Positions 27,615 to 53,080 are shown, counted from the first letter of the stretch. The stretch is DNA of 53,618 nucleotides from Eubacteriales bacterium (GCA_045542315.1 JAZQKU010000085.1:1-53618), one strand, 5' to 3'. The notes: generated by a model from the letters alone, not told the origin. Numbers and translations are program-made.

Positions 27615-29322
27615 CCTTTCCTACAGGGAAAATTATGAAAAATGGATAACCTCGCCCTATATCGATGGGGCAACTCGTGATGAGCTTATGGCTATTGAAA
27701 ATGATGAAAACGAGCTGAAGATGCGGTTTTCGGCGCCGATGGAGTTTGGTACGGCAGGTCAGCGCGGCGTTATGGGAGCAGGCCTTTCGCGTTTAAACGT
27801 CTATACGGTGAAATACACCACCCGCGCGCTTGCAAGCCTTATAATCAAAGAGGGCAAAGCGGCAATGGAGAAGGGCGTTGTGATCGCCTTTGACTGTCGC
27901 TTGAATTCAAGAGAGTTCGGTTACGAGGCGGCGGCGGTGCTTGCCTCAAACGGAATAAAGGTCTTTATTTTTGATGAGCTTACCCCTACCCCCGTGCTTT
28001 CCTATGCAATCAGAAGGCTCGGTGCAACGGCCGGAATAAATATAACCGCAAGCCATAATCCCGTTGAATATAACGGCTATAAGGTTTACTGGTCAAACGG
28101 CGCACAGCTTCCGCCGAAGGAAGCCGCAGTGGTTGCAAAAGAGCTTAAAAGGCTTGATATTTTTGAAGACTGCAAATCAAAGCCCGTCGATTTTCTTGTT
28201 GAAAACGGAATGATAACGGTAATGGATAACTCGCTCGAGGAGGAGTTCTGTAAAGAGCTTCTTTCCCGCAGAATAAACGGCGAAAGGGCAGATATATCGG
28301 TGGTATATACTCCCCTTCACGGCACCGGCAGACGCGCCGTCCCCTTCGTGCTTCGCGAAATGGGAGTTGAGGTGGAAACGGTCACTGAGCAGATGATACC
28401 CGACGGACACTTTTCAACCGTGCCATCGCCGAATCCCGAAAACGCGGTCGCATTTGAATATGCTCTTTCGGTTGCAAATAAAAACGGAAGCAAGGCGGAT
28501 CTGCTTATTGCAACCGATCCCGACGCCGACAGAATAGGCGTTATGGCAAAGAAAAACGGCGAATATAAGGCGATAAGCGGAAATCAGATGGGCGTGCTTC
28601 TTTTGAATTATATGATAACCGCCAAGCGCGAAAAAGGAATTTTAAAGGAAAAAAGCGGTGCGATATCCACAATAGTTTCCACTCCGCTTGCCGAAAAAAT
28701 CGCAAGGAAAAACGGACTTTCCTTTGCCTCGACCTTTACAGGCTTTAAATTCATTGCCGAGAAGATAGATGAGTGGCAGGGTGACGTTGACTTTCTTTTC
28801 GGCTTCGAGGAAAGCTTTGGCTATATGGTGGGCGACTATGTACGTGATAAGGATTCCATCGGTACGGCAATGATGGTCTCGGAGGCTGCGGCATACTGTA
28901 AAAGACAGGGCAAAACCCTTTTCGACCTTCTCGATGCAATATATAACGAATACGGCTATTACTTTGAAAAGACCGATAATATAATGATGAAGGGGATCGA
29001 GGGTCCCGAAAAGACCAAGCGTCTGATGAGCGAGCTTCGCGGAAATATAACCGAGCTCGGCGGCGAAAGGATAGAAAGGATAGCCGACTATAAGAGCGGT
29101 GTTATAAAGGAGCTTGCAAGCGGCAAAGAGGAGCCTACGGGAATGGAAAGCTCAAACGTTTTGAAGTTCTTTTTGGAGGACGGCTCTGCCGTCTGCGTGC
29201 GCCCCTCGGGAACCGAGCCGAAGGTGAAGGTCTATTACCTCGTTTGCGGCAAGGACGAGAAAGAATGCATTTTAAAGACAGAAAAATTGCAAAAAGCAAT
29301 AAACGGCATAATAGCCGATTAA
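27607..29322 (+). CDS. Phosphoglucomutase/phosphomannomutase
   Basis: FGTAG, TASHNP, DPDADR, FEES, RPSGTEPK. Start at MADLS after GGAG. Confidence 0.93.
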   Translation: MADLSYRENYEKWITSPYIDGATRDELMAIENDENELKMRFSAPMEFGTAGQRGVMGAGLSRLNVYTVKYTTRALASLIIKEGKAAMEKGVVIAFDCRLNSREFGYEAAAVLASNGIKVFIFDELTPTPVLSYAIRRLGATAGINITASHNPVEYNGYKVYWSNGAQLPPKEAAVVAKELKRLDIFEDCKSKPVDFLVENGMITVMDNSLEEEFCKELLSRRINGERADISVVYTPLHGTGRRAVPFVLREMGVEVETVTEQMIPDGHFSTVPSPNPENAVAFEYALSVANKNGSKADLLIATDPDADRIGVMAKKNGEYKAISGNQMGVLLLNYMITAKREKGILKEKSGAISTIVSTPLAEKIARKNGLSFASTFTGFKFIAEKIDEWQGDVDFLFGFEESFGYMVGDYVRDKDSIGTAMMVSEAAAYCKRQGKTLFDLLDAIYNEYGYYFEKTDNIMMKGIEGPEKTKRLMSELRGNITELGGERIERIADYKSGVIKELASGKEEPTGMESSNVLKFFLEDGSAVCVRPSGTEPKVKVYYLVCGKDEKECILKTEKLQKAINGIIAD

Positions 29323-29350
29323 AAATTCGGAGCGAAGGCTCCGAAAATAT

Positions 29351-29427
29351 CCGCCTGTAGCTCAGCTGGATAGAGTAGCAGATTCCGATTCTGACGGTCG
29401 GGGGTTCGAATCCCTTCAGGCGGGCCA
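29351..29427 (+). tRNA. tRNA-Arg(CCG)
   Basis: Cloverleaf with acceptor CCGCCTG/CAGGCGG, D-arm GCTC/GAGT, anticodon loop TTCCGAT, T-loop TTCGAAT and encoded CCA. Confidence 0.95.
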
Positions 29428-29467
29428 AAGCAACAAAGCACCTCAAAAGAGGTGCTTTATTGTTTTT
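29428..29467 (+). terminator. Terminator-like hairpin after tRNA-Arg; part of the repeat unit, recurring at 29613-29652
   Basis: AAGCAACAAAGCACCTC-AAAA-GAGGTGCTTTATTGTTTTT. Confidence 0.75.
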
Positions 29468-29472
29468 AAAAG

Positions 29473-29612
29473 GAAGGGATTCGAACTGCGAATGGGAGCA
29501 GCTGCGAGCATTAGCTACGCAGATGCGACGGAGAAACAGTCCGGGGGACTGTTTTGAATTCGCCCAAGGGAGCGCGGTGCGCGACTGCGAGAAAATCCCT
29601 TCAGGCGGGCCA
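29473..29612 (+). repeat. tRNA-linked structured element, copy 1, ending in a duplicated tRNA-Arg 3' end
   Basis: Begins GAAGGGATTCGAAC, the reverse complement of tRNA 29404-29417. Core AAACAGTCC-GGG-GGACTGTTT hairpin. Ends AATCCCTTCAGGCGGGCCA, identical to 29409-29427. Confidence 0.9.
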
Positions 29613-29657
29613 AAGCAATAAAGCACCTCAAAAGAGGTGCTTTGTTGTTTTTAAAAG

Positions 29658-29792
29658 GAGGGGATTCGAACTGCGAATGGGAGCAGCTGCGAGAGAAGTG
29701 AGCAGATGCGACGGAGAAACAGTCCGGGGGACTGTTTTGAATTCACCCAAGGGAGCATAAGCGAGCGCGAGAAAATCCCTTCGCCTCCACCA
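29658..29792 (+). repeat. tRNA-linked structured element, copy 2, ending in a different (Ala/tmRNA-type) 3' end
   Basis: Near-identical to copy 1 apart from hairpin tips and a few substitutions. Ends AATCCCTTCGCCTCCACCA. Confidence 0.9.
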
Positions 29793-29825
29793 GAAAAAAG
29801 CATCGACTTTGTCGGTGCTTTTTTC
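29793..29825 (+). terminator. Terminator-like hairpin after the CGCCTCCACCA end
   Basis: GAAAAAAGCATCGAC-TTT-GTCGGTGCTTTTTTC. Confidence 0.75.
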
Positions 29826-29828
29826 AAC

Positions 29829-30006
29829 TAAATCCACCCTTGCGGGTGGGTGAAATATTGCTTTGCAATGTGAAATACGCCTGCGGCGTGTGAAATTCGC
29901 CTCGACGGCGAGTGGGTGGATTTAATTTCATTTGATGCGATAGCATCTAATTTCACAATTTACGGAGTAAATTATTTCACCGTGAGCGTAAGCGAACGAT
30001 TTCACT
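29829..30006. repeat. GTGAAAT/ATTTCA(C) box array with mini-hairpin spacers
   Basis: GTGAAAT at 29850, 29870, 29890. ATTTCA(C) at 29925, 29950, 29974, 29999. A different short hairpin follows each GTGAAAT box and separates successive ATTTCA(C) boxes. Confidence 0.85.
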
Positions 30007-30113
30007 AAAAGAGTTCAAATTTATACGCAAAAGTCAAAAAATGATTGTACAGTTAATTGAATCTTGCAATTAAAACCACATTTAAAAAAATTGGACAAAA
30101 TACGTTTTTCCTA

Positions 30114-30142
30114 TTGCAAAAAAAATCTATTTATATTATAAT
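30114..30142 (+). promoter_or_regulatory. Sigma-A-type promoter for the islet genes
   Basis: TTGCAA, 17-bp spacer, TATAAT. Confidence 0.6.
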
Positions 30143-30200
30143 TAAGGAAATATATATTCAAATTTAGATATATATTAATAAAATGTTACGGAGGTAAATT

Positions 30201-31694
30201 ATGAAAACGAAAAAAATCATTGCGTTTTTCCTTTGCATTGTTCTGTTCGTTTCGATTTTTGCGGGCTGCACAGATCCGAAGGTGGTTACGACCGAAGACG
30301 TTTACAATGTATTGGATCACGGCCTTACGGCAGACGGTAAAACCGACGTTTCCGCGGCGCTTTTGAGTCTTATTGAAGAGGCTGAAAAAACCGGCGGAAC
30401 TCTGGTATTCCCCAAGGGCACCTATTACGTTGAAGCGGGAGAAATCGCTATTTCGCAAAATATAGGCATCACGCTTCTTGACGGTGCAAGCTTTAAACTT
30501 AATGACGGCACTGCCTTCAATGTTGCAACCGGCGCATTTTCGGCTCCTAAAGCACAGATATTTGCCGGCAACGGTGTCATTTCAGGATTTGTAAACGTTC
30601 CCAACGTTTATTCCGAGTGGTTCGGCGCAAAGGTAAATGACGGAAAGGACGATTCCGACGCCGTTCAGAAGGCTGTTTCCACCGGCGGCAAGGTAACCTT
30701 CCTTGAAGGAAAATATAATATAGACAAATCGGTTGTTCTCGGAAATATTGCGGGTGGCGTAGTCGATATTTACGGTGCGGGAGCAAACAAAACCGAGCTT
30801 ATTTTCGGAAATAATATAATCGGCTTTGATGCGCACAGCAACGGAATGACTCTTGCAAAATTCAATGCATACGGCATCGCATTTTGCGAGAAGGATAATG
30901 CCAAAACCTCAACGGCGATCAAGATAAGCAACCCGGCAATAACCGCAAGAAATTGCCATTTCGAGGGTTTGAAGACAGGAGCATGGTTTGACCACGCCGG
31001 CGGTCATTTTTCGAACAACACCGCAAATGATTGCGAGGTAGTTTACGAAATTTCCGATTTTTCAATGTATATTTATTTCAGCAAATGCGAAGCAGTAAAA
31101 TGCGGCACTCTTATTAAAGCGATCGTATCTCCTTCTGGTGGATATTCAAACGGAATCCTCATTCAGAACTGCAAGAGCGTTGACGCTTTTGCAGAGGACA
31201 TTTACCTTACCGAAAATCAAGCGGTCTGGATTGCAGACTGTGAGTTTATCGGCGGTACAGGGGGTATAGCTTCCGTTTACTTTAAGTCAAATACTGACTC
31301 GGGCATTGAAAACTGTGTTATTTCCTCTGCAAAGGGAAGCGATAGAGTAGGTATCTATTACGATGCCAGCTTCTACTGCTCTATTCAGGAAAACACTATT
31401 TCAGACTGCTCCGAGGCTATTCGCTTAAGCGGCGGCGGCGCGATGACCGTTACTGATAACGTTATTTCCGGAAGCTCCAAGTGCGAGCTTGCGATCCGTT
31501 CGCAGTACAATATTTTTGTTGCAAGAAATCTCTTTAAATCAGAGCTTGAAAAGCCTATCGTTTCAGAAAAGGTAAATAAAAAGATAAATATTATTGAAAA
31601 TACCTTTGCAGCTGCCGAGCACGATATTGCGGCAGGCTTTTCGGGAAAGAATATTACGGCTGAGGATAATATCTTTGGCTACAGCTTTAACTAA
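30201..31694 (+). CDS. Lipoprotein with right-handed parallel beta-helix (pectate-lyase-superfamily / tailspike-like glycan-active protein)
   Basis: Signal peptide with lipobox FAGC. YNVLDHGLTADGKTDVSAAL and EWFGAKVNDGKDDSDAVQKAV N-terminal motifs. Beta-helix-like I-x-N-x-I repeats (IQNCK, IENCVI, IQENTI, VTDNVI). Confidence 0.75.
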   Translation: MKTKKIIAFFLCIVLFVSIFAGCTDPKVVTTEDVYNVLDHGLTADGKTDVSAALLSLIEEAEKTGGTLVFPKGTYYVEAGEIAISQNIGITLLDGASFKLNDGTAFNVATGAFSAPKAQIFAGNGVISGFVNVPNVYSEWFGAKVNDGKDDSDAVQKAVSTGGKVTFLEGKYNIDKSVVLGNIAGGVVDIYGAGANKTELIFGNNIIGFDAHSNGMTLAKFNAYGIAFCEKDNAKTSTAIKISNPAITARNCHFEGLKTGAWFDHAGGHFSNNTANDCEVVYEISDFSMYIYFSKCEAVKCGTLIKAIVSPSGGYSNGILIQNCKSVDAFAEDIYLTENQAVWIADCEFIGGTGGIASVYFKSNTDSGIENCVISSAKGSDRVGIYYDASFYCSIQENTISDCSEAIRLSGGGAMTVTDNVISGSSKCELAIRSQYNIFVARNLFKSELEKPIVSEKVNKKINIIENTFAAAEHDIAAGFSGKNITAEDNIFGYSFN

Positions 31695-31708: not shown

Positions 31709-33337
31709 ATGTTTAAGAAAATAGTTTCAATTTCACTTGCGTTAATGCTTATTCTCGGTCTTGCCTCCTGTGGCGGTTCGGAAATGAAGATTTCGGGCGT
31801 GCAAAGCCAATTCTATTCCGAGCCTAATGACATAACCAATCCCATTTCATTCCCCGACGTTAAGACGATCGTGGGAAATGAGAAAAACCTTATCGACGTT
31901 AAGGCTCACGGCGCAGTATCCGACGGTGAAACCGACGATACCGCTGCTGTAAACGCAGCAATCGAAGCGGCTTCGGCTGTAAACGGCATCGTTTATTTTT
32001 CGAGTGGAAAATACCTTGTCGGAGATATAGTTGTTCCTGCAAACGTAGCCTTTGCAGTTGCCACTTCTGCAACCGTTACCGTTAAAGATGGCTCAAAAGC
32101 GGTTATCAACAGCTCCGATATTTATCTTCCCAAAAAAGCGGTTTTGGCAGGCGCATTCGATTTCACCGGCGGCGTAAACTACGCATATCCGGAGTGGTTC
32201 GGCGATGGAAGCAAGGGTATTCAAGGAGCAGTAAATGCGGCCGATAAGGTTTACCTTATGAGAACCAACTACCAAATAAAAGAAACTGTAATAATTCCTC
32301 AGAGCAGAAATATTGAAATTATCGGCTCCTCTAACACCGCAACCGTAATTACAATGGCCGGCGAGAAGCTCTCTTACGTATTCGAATATATTTATGAAAG
32401 CGGTGCTGCTTCAAATCTTTCTGTCTCGTTTATCCGTATTGTTGATAACACGGGAATGAATTTCATTAAATTCTATGGCAACCCCGCAAACAACGAAGGC
32501 AAGCTTGAAATTAATACTATGCGTATCGAGAACGGCGCTGACACTACTATTTCTGTTGTCAAAAACTCAACAGGCTCATTCTATGAGGAGATCTTTGCCG
32601 CGAATATTAAGCTCCTTGCAAAATTCGAAGGAGGCGTCAACGATGTAACCTTCAGCAGAGCTCTCAGCTTGAGTAATATGCAGGGATTTCTCGAGGCAGA
32701 CGGTGCCATCAACGGAGAGGGCGTTTCCAAGAAGCTTTATTTCCATAACTCAAGCTCTGTCCACGTAAAGGGTATTGATTTTATAATTTCAAATTATGAG
32801 GACGTAACCTTTATTCACAGCTCCGGCGACCTTGGTGAAAGAGAAACCAACGAGGCTGCTCTTAAGATGACCAATGTTAATGATTTTGAACTTACCCGTT
32901 GCTGGTGGGCTTCAAACACAGGTCTTTCCTACGGTGCGGAGTATGGCATTGCAAGAAGCAGAATAGGCGTTTACCTTATAAATTGCACCAACGGTAAAAT
33001 CAACGGCAATTCCATTGTAAACCAGTGGACAGGCGTAAAAATCGTTGGCGGAAGCGATATTTCTTTAGAGGGCAATACATTCCAGGGCTGCGGTCATTCC
33101 GAACTCACTCTTGACGGTGCGAAGGACGTTACCGTTCAGGGAAATACCTTTATGTCGGGTGGACAGTTTGCTATAATGAGTGCAGACGTTAAGGATCCTG
33201 ACGGAATCTATCTTATAGAGTCCTTGTCAACGAATGAAAACATTATTTTCAAGCATAATTTCATTTCTAAAATCACCCGTGCAGGCGATGCCGCAAACGG
33301 CGACGTTCCCGGTTTTACTTTACATAACAACGTATAA
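31709..33337 (+). CDS. Lipoprotein with right-handed parallel beta-helix (pectate-lyase-superfamily / tailspike-like)
   Basis: Lipobox LASC, IDVKAHGAVSDGETDDTAAVNAAI, YPEWFG, INGNSI/LEGNTF/VQGNTF repeats. Distant paralog of the upstream gene. Confidence 0.75.
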   Translation: MFKKIVSISLALMLILGLASCGGSEMKISGVQSQFYSEPNDITNPISFPDVKTIVGNEKNLIDVKAHGAVSDGETDDTAAVNAAIEAASAVNGIVYFSSGKYLVGDIVVPANVAFAVATSATVTVKDGSKAVINSSDIYLPKKAVLAGAFDFTGGVNYAYPEWFGDGSKGIQGAVNAADKVYLMRTNYQIKETVIIPQSRNIEIIGSSNTATVITMAGEKLSYVFEYIYESGAASNLSVSFIRIVDNTGMNFIKFYGNPANNEGKLEINTMRIENGADTTISVVKNSTGSFYEEIFAANIKLLAKFEGGVNDVTFSRALSLSNMQGFLEADGAINGEGVSKKLYFHNSSSVHVKGIDFIISNYEDVTFIHSSGDLGERETNEAALKMTNVNDFELTRCWWASNTGLSYGAEYGIARSRIGVYLINCTNGKINGNSIVNQWTGVKIVGGSDISLEGNTFQGCGHSELTLDGAKDVTVQGNTFMSGGQFAIMSADVKDPDGIYLIESLSTNENIIFKHNFISKITRAGDAANGDVPGFTLHNNV

Positions 33338-33409
33338 GTACTAAACAAAACTCAATAATATTATTTTGGGATATATTTAGGGCTTGGGGATTTTTGTACT
33401 AACACCACC

Positions 33410-33459
33410 TCGCCCAAGGGAGCATAAGCGAGCGCGAGAAAATCCCTTCAGGCGGGCCA
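33410..33459 (+). repeat. 3' fragment of the tRNA-linked element plus tRNA-Arg 3' end duplicate (attR-like)
   Basis: TCGCCCAAGGGAGCATAAGCGAGCGCGAGAAAATCCCTTC matches copy 2 (29743-29782) with one mismatch, then continues AGGCGGGCCA. Confidence 0.88.
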
Positions 33460-33462
33460 AAT

Positions 33463-33492
33463 AGCCCCGCACCTCTTTTGAGGTGCGGGGCT
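33463..33492 (+). terminator. Hairpin after the distal tRNA 3' duplicate
   Basis: AGCCCCGCACCTC-TTTT-GAGGTGCGGGGCT. Shares the GCACCTC/GAGGTGC core with the hairpins at 29428 and 29613. Confidence 0.7.
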
Positions 33493-36491: not shown

Positions 36492-36790
36492 GCATGACTG
36501 AATAATGCGTTGATGCGGGAGGTTGCCGATAAGGTATTTACTGCACCTTTTCGGGTTTTTCCGCGGAGTAAGTCCGATGCAAGACGTCGGGCGGCAGGCA
36601 ATCGGTACACAGATTAAAAGCGGGCCATCTTTGAGCCGCGTTCTTTAATTGATGTGTTAGTTGCTCCGATTTTTTCATAGGGAAAAAATCGGTTTTATTG
36701 TGTAAAGACAAAAAACGCACGGAACGGTGTACACAAGAAAGCCTGCGAATAGGTCAATGAAATATCTCAAAGAAAGAGAATTTAGGAGGC
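36492..36790 (+). promoter_or_regulatory. Long structured S10 5' leader (candidate clostridial r-protein leader RNA)
   Basis: ~300-nt untranslated region between the promoter and rpsJ. Contains pairings such as GGTTGCC/GGCAATC and CCGATTTTTTC/GAAAAAATCGG. Confidence 0.5.
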
Positions 36791-52662: not shown

Positions 52663-52738
<76 letters not shown>

Positions 52739-52778
52739 AATAACAGAACCACCCAAAAGGGTGGTCTTATTATTTTTT
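52739..52778 (+). terminator. Terminator-like hairpin after tRNA-Ala
   Basis: ACCACCC-AAAA-GGGTGGT followed by a T-rich tract. Confidence 0.7.
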
Positions 52779-52791
52779 GCGAAGCAAAAAG

Positions 52792-52910
52792 AAGGGGGAT
52801 CGAACTGCGAATGGAAGCAGAAGCGCCGCGAAGCGGGGCAGATGCGACGGAGAAACAGTTCGGGGAACTGTTTCGAATTCGCCCAAAGGAGCGAAGCGAC
52901 TGCGAGAAAA
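52792..52910 (+). repeat. tRNA-linked structured element, copy at tRNA-Ala
   Basis: Begins AAGGGGGATCGAAC, the reverse complement of tRNA-Ala 52715-52728. Continues TGCGAATGG...GCAGATGCGACGGAGAAACAGTTC-GGG-GAACTGTTTCGAATTCGCCCAA...GCGAGAAAA, as in the tRNA-Arg copies. Confidence 0.9.
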
Positions 52911-53051: not shown

Positions 53052-53080
53052 TTGACATATAAAAAAAAATGTGTTATAAT
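53052..53080 (+). promoter_or_regulatory. Consensus sigma-A promoter with extended -10 and an A9 run in the spacer
   Basis: TTGACA, 17-bp spacer, TATAAT with TG at 53072-53073; A9 at 53061-53069. Confidence 0.75.

Follow-up and report, generated by a model that had tools for sequence, protein, structure and literature searches.

Here we describe a short sequence module that stands behind tRNA genes in a 53,618-nt stretch of DNA from a Eubacteriales bacterium (GCA_045542315.1 JAZQKU010000085.1:1-53618), hereafter called the window, with module coordinates given on one strand, 5′ to 3′. On the analogy of its position and architecture, the module is assigned to the class of tRNA-linked repeats (TLRs) known from E. 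coli, as a member of that class and without a claim of homology to the E. coli repeats. We give roughly an even chance to the full proposal, in which this TLR-type module would function as a + strand RNA, made by read-through of the terminator T1 of the tRNA gene and trimmed at a tRNA-like end, and would have spread by recombination at tRNA ends. Each unit has the same order: a tRNA or transfer-messenger RNA (tmRNA) gene, a terminator, a 14-nt inverted repeat (IR), a folded core of ~110 nt, a direct repeat (DR) ending in CCA, and a second terminator-like hairpin. The IR is an inverted copy of the tRNA T-loop and 3′ T-stem (positions 53-66), and the DR is a direct copy of the last 19 nt of the tRNA (positions 58-76), CCA included. 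The module carries no genes, its units are often found in tandem, and pairing of the IR with the DR closes the fold.

An earlier note on this DNA, made from the sequence alone, had delimited the folded element as 29487-29595, a stretch lying 60 nt behind tRNA-Arg(CCG). These borders needed correction, as the closed structure spans 29473-29602 and is held together by a stem of GAAGGGATT (29473-29481) with AATCCCTTC (29594-29602), in which the first 9 nt of the copy 1 IR pair with the DR. The IR mirrors positions 53-66 of the tRNA-Arg (GTTCGAATCCCTTC), and positions 58-76 are repeated as the DR. The core of copy 1 consists of helix P2 (29488-29493/29558-29563), variable hairpin 1 (29502-29522), a central hairpin (29533-29555) and variable tip hairpin 2 (29570-29584), together with the conserved junction strands GGGAGCAG, GATGCGACGGAG, CCCAAGGGA and GACTGCGAGAAA. 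The 45 nt following the DR (29613-29657) are a 97% copy of T1 plus spacer and lead into the tandem copy 2, with its IR GAGGGGATTCGAAC (29658-29671) and a hybrid DR, in which Arg-type AATCCCTTC is followed by GCCTCCACCA, the 3′ end of the tmRNA genes of relatives. Copy 3, behind tRNA-Ala(CGC), has the IR AAGGGGGATCGAAC (52792-52805), complementary to positions 53-66 of that tRNA, and lacks a DR, which the orthologous copy in a sister species (L019) retains. The truncated copy at 33410 still ends in a DR (33441-33459, family D3) identical to tRNA-Arg 58-76 and followed by a terminator hairpin. A 19-nt core motif occurs three times, against 0.03 occurrences expected. Both the scans and the sequences of relatives place a terminator-like hairpin with a T run after the DR on the + strand. 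Rfam assigned no family to the module at gathering scores and none at E ≤ 10 over 29300-29950; no ribozyme or rtT was among the matches listed.

To survey the module, we built the covariance model R1 from alignment A3, which comprises 17 distinct full copies from five genomes of one genus with 34 counted pairs; R1 is specific to the source genus. Among 151 genomes from 96 genera and 30 families of an order of gut Clostridia, R1 found the module in 29 genomes, 16 genera and 12 families; all five genomes of the source family, a single genus, carry it. ARAGORN, with which tRNA genes were called (tRNA and tmRNA also by Rfam), found 46 occurrences of the hairpin preceded by a tRNA or tmRNA on the same strand, and Rfam placed a tmRNA upstream at five loci. 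No tRNA precedes L004, L034 or the 33410 fragment. An exact scan of genome contigs gave 14 loci, four of which, from two Clostridia metagenome-assembled genomes, are real copies; the other ten (Rhodobacteraceae and others) were excluded from every count.

A clear regularity concerns the two ends, which are tailored to the local tRNA. In a set of 38 distinct first units that follow tRNAs, Watson-Crick complementarity between IR and tRNA holds in 34-38 units at positions 54-60 and in 31-36 at positions 61-64, dropping to 24-26 units at positions 53, 65 and 66. The informative positions are 57, 59, 60 and 62-65, positions 54-56, 58 and 61 being near-universal in tRNAs. The DR agrees with its tRNA at 18 or more of 19 nt in 29 units; the nine misses are L003, L031, L043, L045, L058, L061, L069, L071 and L076. 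Every relative examined follows the same end rule, with tRNAs for Arg, Ala, Glu, Gly, Gln, Trp, Ser, Val, Leu, Tyr, Thr and Pro as well as tmRNA, and the anchors include at least 17 tRNA species plus tmRNA. The T-loops of tRNA-Arg read TTCGAAT, TTCGACT, TTCAAAT and TTCAACT in four species, and the IR tracks each of them, position 57 included. Where the tRNA has A57, a T stands at the matching IR position in all six units (L023, L033, L042, L053, L057 and L077), of which L023, L033, L042, L057 and L077 have a DR without position 57. Because the IR matches position 57 outside the DR, it reflects the tRNA itself and not the DR alone.

A separate observation was made on the tmRNA of the source genome (L005, in the last 450 nt of contig G000:C40). 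It scores 136.7 bits, against 171-178 bits in three sister species, and its T-arm and acceptor end read GGGGCTCGACTTCACTCGCCTACACCA, against GGGGTTCGACTCCCCTCGCCTCCACCA in the relatives. The module behind it retains the IR of the relatives' version, and the contig ends inside the module.

All strings and positions that the earlier note gave for the fold are right, and its stems were borne out by the alignment. The central stem is AAACAGTCC-GGG-GGACTGTTT in copies 1 and 2 (29534-29554 and 29717-29737) and GAAACAGTTC-GGG-GAACTGTTTC in the tRNA-Ala copy, a compensatory C-G to T-A change at alignment pair 73:79, where ten of the 17 distinct copies have U-A and seven have C-G. GCGAAT pairs with ATTCGC in P2 and closes the multibranch domain; pair 21:95 is U-A in nine copies, C-G in five, U-G in one and C-A in two. 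Differences between copies are concentrated in the two variable hairpins. The strings that were quoted for a distal tip frame GA-GC-loop-GC-GA are exact, and the inner G-C and C-G pairs are kept in 16/17 and 15/17 copies, respectively, but the outer GA..GA is not universal, as L031 and L015 deviate. The three occurrences of GCGAAGC at the tRNA-Ala locus (52779, 52828 and 52891) are real; only this local cluster is unusual, since the 19 occurrences in the whole window do not exceed the 15.9 ± 4.0 expected.

Selection on the fold, which had been proposed from three copies, is supported by covariation and by the complementarity of P2 across subfamilies. In the 17 copies, 88.1% of the paired cells are complementary, against 80.5% in shuffles, and the covariation score of 0.258, against 0.136 in shuffles, was matched by none of 500 shuffles and fell to 0.046-0.078 when partner columns were slid by 1-3; kinship among the copies makes these figures overstate independence. 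Two-sided changes occur in 13 of the 34 pairs. The comparison between subfamilies is the stronger argument. P2 sequences are unrelated between subfamilies and yet always complementary: GCGAAT/ATTCGC, GTGAGC/GCTCAC, GGGTCGG/CCGACCC, GGGGCGG/CCGCCCC, AGGGC/GCCCT and GGCGG/CCGCC, with AGTCC/GGACT in L074 alongside the AGGGC/GCCCT type. Distant copies keep the plan of IR, helix P2, central hairpin, P2 return strand, variable hairpin and DR, in which the IR:DR stem closes a three- to four-way junction. Across families the sequence itself is conserved only in the T-loop complement TYGAA, in GCGA just before the DR, and in the central hairpin ACAGTCC-GGN-GGACTGT. This pattern is the hallmark of a single strand that folds and carries one specific recognition hairpin.

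Fold stability and mismatches identify the + strand, which has the polarity of the tRNA, as the folded strand. Of 28 distinct copies, 26 fold more stably on the + than on the − strand when RNA parameters are used and all 28 do so with DNA parameters, and the helix cells of A3 contain 21 G·T against four A·C on the + strand, as the proposed check of mismatch bias revealed. Comparing folding energies on both strands thus favored the + strand, yet it did not separate RNA from DNA: copy 1 reaches z −3.0 on the + and −3.7 on the − strand as RNA, and −31.1 kcal/mol with z −4.7 on the + and z −4.5 on the − strand as DNA, and as both parameter sets favor the + strand, the energies do not discriminate between the two molecules. 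The 83 hairpin loops of the minimum-free-energy (MFE) structures include three GNA triloops, three GNRA and two CUUG loops, the commonest being the GGG and GGT triloops of the central hairpin (GGN/TGN type dominant). Loop types leave RNA versus DNA undecided, and GNA triloops are no feature of the family.

Units duplicate in tandem, swap ends between loci, bracket foreign DNA and decay. The window holds two units in tandem, the tRNA-Arg locus of G003 has at least three, and pairs occur in several other families. This locus is orthologous in four species, with a phosphoglucomutase gene of 71-81% identity upstream, and all four carry the module there, in 1, 1, 2 and at least three copies; the locus has been kept since the ancestor of the genus. 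Ends have been exchanged between loci in the hybrid DR of copy 2, in L024 and L029, whose DRs differ from their own tRNA, and in L031, a unit behind tRNA-Gln whose terminator, spacer and IR are those of the tmRNA locus. The 40-nt repeat that brackets a 3.6-kb segment of the window is composed of the 3′ end of the core and AATCCCTTC. Besides a Gut-1 repeat, the segment contains two paralogous genes for beta-helix (pectate-lyase-like) proteins (30201-31694 and 31709-33337); it has no recombinase gene. A similar segment of 2.7 kb is bracketed at the tmRNA locus of G002, its main open reading frame (ORF) encoding a 394-aa DUF5677 protein (L030, G002:C21, ORF 195-1379). Decay is seen in L004, which stands behind a protein gene and has lost internal sequence between two CTGCGAG repeats, and in L006 and L036. 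The modules mark recombination-prone sites that collect accessory genes behind tRNA genes.

The closest known counterparts are the TLRs of E. coli, a class defined after Rudd 1999; PMC8144298, which cites Egan and Landy 1978, Rudd 1999 and Bosl and Kersten 1991, counts 22 TLRs at ten loci of E. coli K-12, with 1-5 per locus, the last 18-19 bp of a repeat being identical to the 3′ terminus of the tRNA or rRNA ahead of it. The same source describes RrA, RrB and RrF as products of T1 read-through followed by processing (PMC8144298). The E. coli class includes the 178-bp repeats behind tyrT/tyrV, with the RttR (rtT) RNA, and RrA/RrB/RrF behind 5S rRNA. Like these, the Clostridial module immediately follows a stable-RNA gene and shares its orientation (copies 1 and 2 behind tRNA-Arg, copy 3 behind tRNA-Ala), occurs as one to five head-to-tail units per locus, encodes no protein and is set between two terminators (in E. 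coli where studied). Its end repeats the 3′ end of the upstream gene at 19 of 19 nt in copy 1; copy 2 has the hybrid end and copy 3 none.

The likeness extends to the architecture of the tyrT units. At the tyrT-tyrV-rttR locus these hold GGGGAAGGAT, the reverse complement of the tRNA-Tyr end ATCCTTCCCC, and the annotated RttR RNA is predicted to form a 10-bp closing stem, GGGGAAGGAU : AUCCUUCCCC, around several hairpins in a ~110-nt domain and ends at the repeated CCA with the single-stranded 3′ tail CACCACCA. Both families thus have inverted and direct copies of a tRNA end that close a multi-hairpin domain of ~110 nt with a CCA tail, and in both the central hairpin is preceded by a purine-rich GCGA..GAG strand and followed by a CCC(G)AAGGG strand. 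The Clostridial IR, however, covers the T-loop (positions 53-66, against 59-68 in E. coli), the Clostridial core hairpin is conserved in sequence across families, and tmRNA serves as an anchor in addition. Expression has been demonstrated for the E. coli TLRs and is proposed for the Clostridial module. Homology to the E. coli TLRs or to rtT, which we take to be RF00391, was considered and rejected as not detectable with the R1 and rtT searches. A full-text literature search, whose coverage excludes most subscription journals, returned no paper on such modules outside E. coli.

We infer, on the analogy of E. coli, that the active form would be RNA, which is favored because the polarity is tied to tRNA transcription, because a tRNA-like CCA end is followed by a terminator, because of the gaps in the enzyme repertoire of the genus (see below), and because of the parallel with E. 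coli. Transcription of the tRNA gene would read through T1 into the module. The IR:DR stem, with a single-stranded acceptor strand and NCCA, would mimic a tRNA 3′ end, and the tRNA 3′-maturation machinery would trim the transcript at CCA, where E. coli RttR also ends, to yield a stable RNA of ~130-150 nt, with the invariant ACAGUCC-GGN-GGACUGU hairpin as a putative protein-recognition site. Spread and turnover would proceed by recombination at the repeated tRNA end, with no enzyme of the module's own.

A number of observations weigh against this reading. Scans of both window loci found no promoter-like site before the module, and T1 looks strong, so that any expression would rely on read-through. 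In four metatranscriptome runs, contigs on 29000-30400 cover the tRNA-Arg and 29820-30010 and leave 29470-29750 uncovered; as contigs drop rare RNAs, this gap does not argue that the module is silent. The truncated or internally deleted copies (L004, L006, L036 and 33410-33459) indicate that many copies are not maintained. R1, run with filters off on the tyrT-tyrV-rttR locus, gave a best E of 0.21, cmscan listed no rtT match at E ≤ 10 over 29300-29950, and the likeness to the E. coli TLRs may be convergence. For these TLRs themselves, PMC8144298 records no accepted function since 1978. In the source genus, IR complementarity reaches T-loop position 57, outside the DR; a simple closing-stem model leaves this match unaccounted for, as IR:DR pairing needs no such match, and it suggests that the tRNA either is copied as a unit becomes installed or serves as the pairing partner. 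The mismatches between IR and tRNA show no wobble bias (nine G·T, 15 A·C).

The earlier note had preferred single-stranded DNA (ssDNA) to RNA as the selected molecule. In this account, which we regard as unlikely, the IR and DR of a folded + strand ssDNA would rebuild the T-arm duplex of a tRNA, and a recombinase or HUH nuclease would integrate it at tRNA genes, with tandem arrays as the source of new single strands, comparable to the dif mimic of CTX phage and to integron attC. Folded ssDNA serves as a recombination substrate in CTX phage attP(+), in integron attC and in the IS200/IS605 or REP hairpins used by HUH enzymes. With these substrates the module shares an imperfect inverted repeat that rebuilds the target duplex, here an IR:DR stem equal to the duplex of tRNA positions 58-66, as well as a strand-specific fold (z −4.7 with DNA parameters, the + strand ahead in 28/28 copies) and tandem arrays of up to at least three units. 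The foreign DNA bracketed by module repeats, the recurrence of GCGAAGC in several subfamilies, and an IR that copies T-loop position 57 outside the DR would also suit ssDNA. The module differs from such substrates in that its site is a tRNA T-arm and not dif or attI, its polarity follows the tRNA, and a terminator stands after the unit; ssDNA gives no role to the fixed polarity or to that terminator. Orthologous copies are stable across four species, and GNA triloops are rare (3/83 loops).

Candidate partner enzymes for ssDNA are wanting as well. Among the five genomes of the genus, no IS110 and no reverse transcriptase (RVT_1) was found, RVT_1 being present across the order in 6 of 29 module genomes against 30 of 122 module-free ones. 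The sole match to a Y1 HUH transposase (PF01797), in one of the five genomes, is a broken IS200-type gene (G000:C75:19932-20287) with the in-frame stops TAG and TAA; thus, no intact Y1 or IS110 partner exists in the genus among the families searched, which did not include Rep_trans and the relaxases. By the same search, the module has no cognate Y1 or RAYT enzyme that would place it among HUH/REP elements, as PF01797 occurs only as the broken copy in 1/5 genomes. Resolvase was found in two of the five. G003, 97% complete and with seven R1 matches, has none of RVT_1, IS110, Y1_Tnp and Resolvase. Reverse transcriptase, IS110, Y1 HUH and serine recombinase were therefore rejected as partners for lack of association with the module. 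With energies indecisive, GNA triloops rare, partner enzymes wanting, and polarity and terminators that fit RNA, the preference for ssDNA found no support.

Equally improbable, in our estimate, is an origin as duplex attachment-site debris, with the units as degenerate termini (P arm plus attR) left by islands or prophages whose tyrosine integrases act at T-loops, the palindrome as a protein site, and a kinship to integrase-less cis-mobilizable elements. Integrative elements at tRNA and tmRNA genes are bounded by the attL/attR sites of tyrosine integrases, may use a T-loop sublocation, and leave integrase-less cis-mobilizable remnants. The module resembles them in its regenerated tRNA with a displaced 3′ fragment starting in the T-loop, the layout of a classical attL/attR pair, in tandem accretion, in foreign DNA between repeats (the 3.6-kb and 2.7-kb segments flanked by module copies), in the use of tmRNA as a target and in its hybrid DRs. 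Tyrosine recombinases (PF00589) occur in all five genomes of the genus, with matches on contigs other than those of the modules; G002 and G004 have a single recombinase each, of Xer size, which speaks against an integrase origin. So do a unit of only ~185 bp without genes and one core family at 17 or more tRNA species, whereas integrases are site-specific. The compensatory, sequence-unrelated helices (P2 and both variable hairpins) and the strand asymmetry of 21 G·T versus four A·C would be unexpected for duplex protein sites. The copies examined have no adjoining integrase: none was found in the scanned ORFs beside three loci, and no integrase domain in the ORFs of the 3.6-kb segment or of the segment at the G002 tmRNA locus, so that neither qualifies as a tyrosine-integrase island.

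Viral contigs bear on the same question. The central hairpin is present in 69 IMG/VR contigs, of which one passes the strict IR/DR test, the DR starting later in those variants. By eye, the first 14 contigs include seven modules behind partial tRNA ends and five hairpins in a different structured context. Often a predicted prophage of 30-36 kb ends 1-3 kb from the module, which then follows a partial tRNA 3′ end, as would be expected of attachment-site debris. In the examples examined, its place behind a partial tRNA 3′ end near the predicted prophage end implies that it already stood behind the tRNA that the phage used. A probe for an empty site (32 nt, joining tRNA-Arg to the terminator at 33460) had no match in metagenome contigs, and a core probe gave 13 matches there, all unrelated and without the hairpin.

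Five IMG/VR loci deserve separate mention (L103, L108, L109, L111 and L114). The hairpin AACAGTCCGGTGGACTGTT there caps a longer stem in a different setting, with no tRNA end and next to the start of a divergently oriented gene. On this sequence evidence, the central hairpin may be a recognition module shared by more than one element.

The match at position 57 also fits a quite improbable scheme in which the IR acts as a guide: the module would encode no protein and retarget itself, pairing as RNA or as a single strand with the T-arm of any tRNA or tmRNA gene or transcript that it meets. Installation would rewrite both ends, the inverted 53-66 and the direct 58-76; in a variant at the RNA level, the IR would unzip the tRNA T-arm in the read-through transcript and the DR would become the 3′ end. 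Such a guide would explain one core at 17 or more tRNA species, an IR that tracks T-loop position 57 outside the DR, and the same layout in E. coli and Clostridia. A neutral selfish repeat, without cell function, merely kept duplicating by tRNA-end recombination and with a fold that is a by-product of palindromes, would suit the truncated, internally deleted and DR-less copies, the patchy distribution (29/151 genomes, 16/96 genera) and the varying copy number at the orthologous locus (1, 1, 2, ≥3), but we hold it to be very unlikely in view of the compensatory changes and conserved unpaired junctions across families, which imply purifying selection on a folded molecule, and of a locus retained since the genus ancestor.

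Table 1. Coordinates of the module copies, their anchor genes and associated features in the window.
Feature	Position	Strand	Evidence or remark
tRNA-Arg(CCG), anchor gene	29351..29427	+	ARAGORN; Rfam tRNA 56.5 bits
Terminator T1 of tRNA-Arg, between tRNA and module	29435..29458	+	10-bp stem, then ATTGTTTTTA
IR of copy 1, GAAGGGATTCGAAC	29473..29486	+	14/14 complementary to tRNA-Arg 53-66
Folded core of copy 1	29487..29593	+	
DR of copy 1, AATCCCTTCAGGCGGGCCA	29594..29612	+	19/19 identical to tRNA-Arg 58-76; repeat families D1, D3
Copy 2, tandem, 185-nt period	29658..29792	+	R1 model 147.9 bits
Bracketed 3.6-kb segment	29783..33409	+	40-nt direct repeat 29743-29782 vs 33410-33449, 98% identical, family D5
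5′-truncated module copy (core 3′ end) and DR	33410..33459	+	R1 match 33380-33463, 33.7 bits, E 2e-8
tRNA-Ala(CGC), anchor of copy 3	52663..52738	+	its terminator T1 at 52748-52765
Copy 3, IR and core	52792..52910	+	R1 128.3 bits

Beside the module, the Gut-1 RNA (RF01706) scores 90.4 bits at 29825-29901 and continues to ~30010; metatranscriptome contigs from two studies cover 29820-30010. Gut-1 seems to be a string of short hairpins separated by GTGAAAT and begins with a hairpin of its own, AGAAAAAAGC...GCTTTTTT. It is dispersed, with 44 matches in the 1.48-Mb source genome, 51 in G002, 29 in G146, six in G052 and two in G003, and the matches often form a forward and reverse pair. It directly follows the module DR at five loci in four genomes (the window, L023, L034, L052 and L055). 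A role as obligatory cargo of the module was rejected, as most of the 44 matches in the source genome are not beside a module.

Two further features of the window were recorded. One is a perfect sigma-70-type promoter at 53052-53080 (TTGACA and TATAAT separated by 17 nt, with TG upstream of TATAAT), located in AT-rich DNA shortly after copy 3, the one without a DR, and near the contig end. An S10-Clostridia ribosomal protein leader (RF03136, 44.6 bits) at 36502-36593 places the organism among the Clostridia.

To what is known from E. coli, the Clostridial family adds strong covariation over many subfamilies, evidence for selection on a folded single strand with the polarity of the tRNA, and a clear rule by which the local tRNA or tmRNA sets the sequence of both ends. 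If the guide scheme held, it would represent a new mechanism by which DNA homes to tRNA genes. If the module acts as an RNA, as we propose, many bacteria would make stable RNAs that borrow the promoter and the 3′-end maturation signal of a tRNA.

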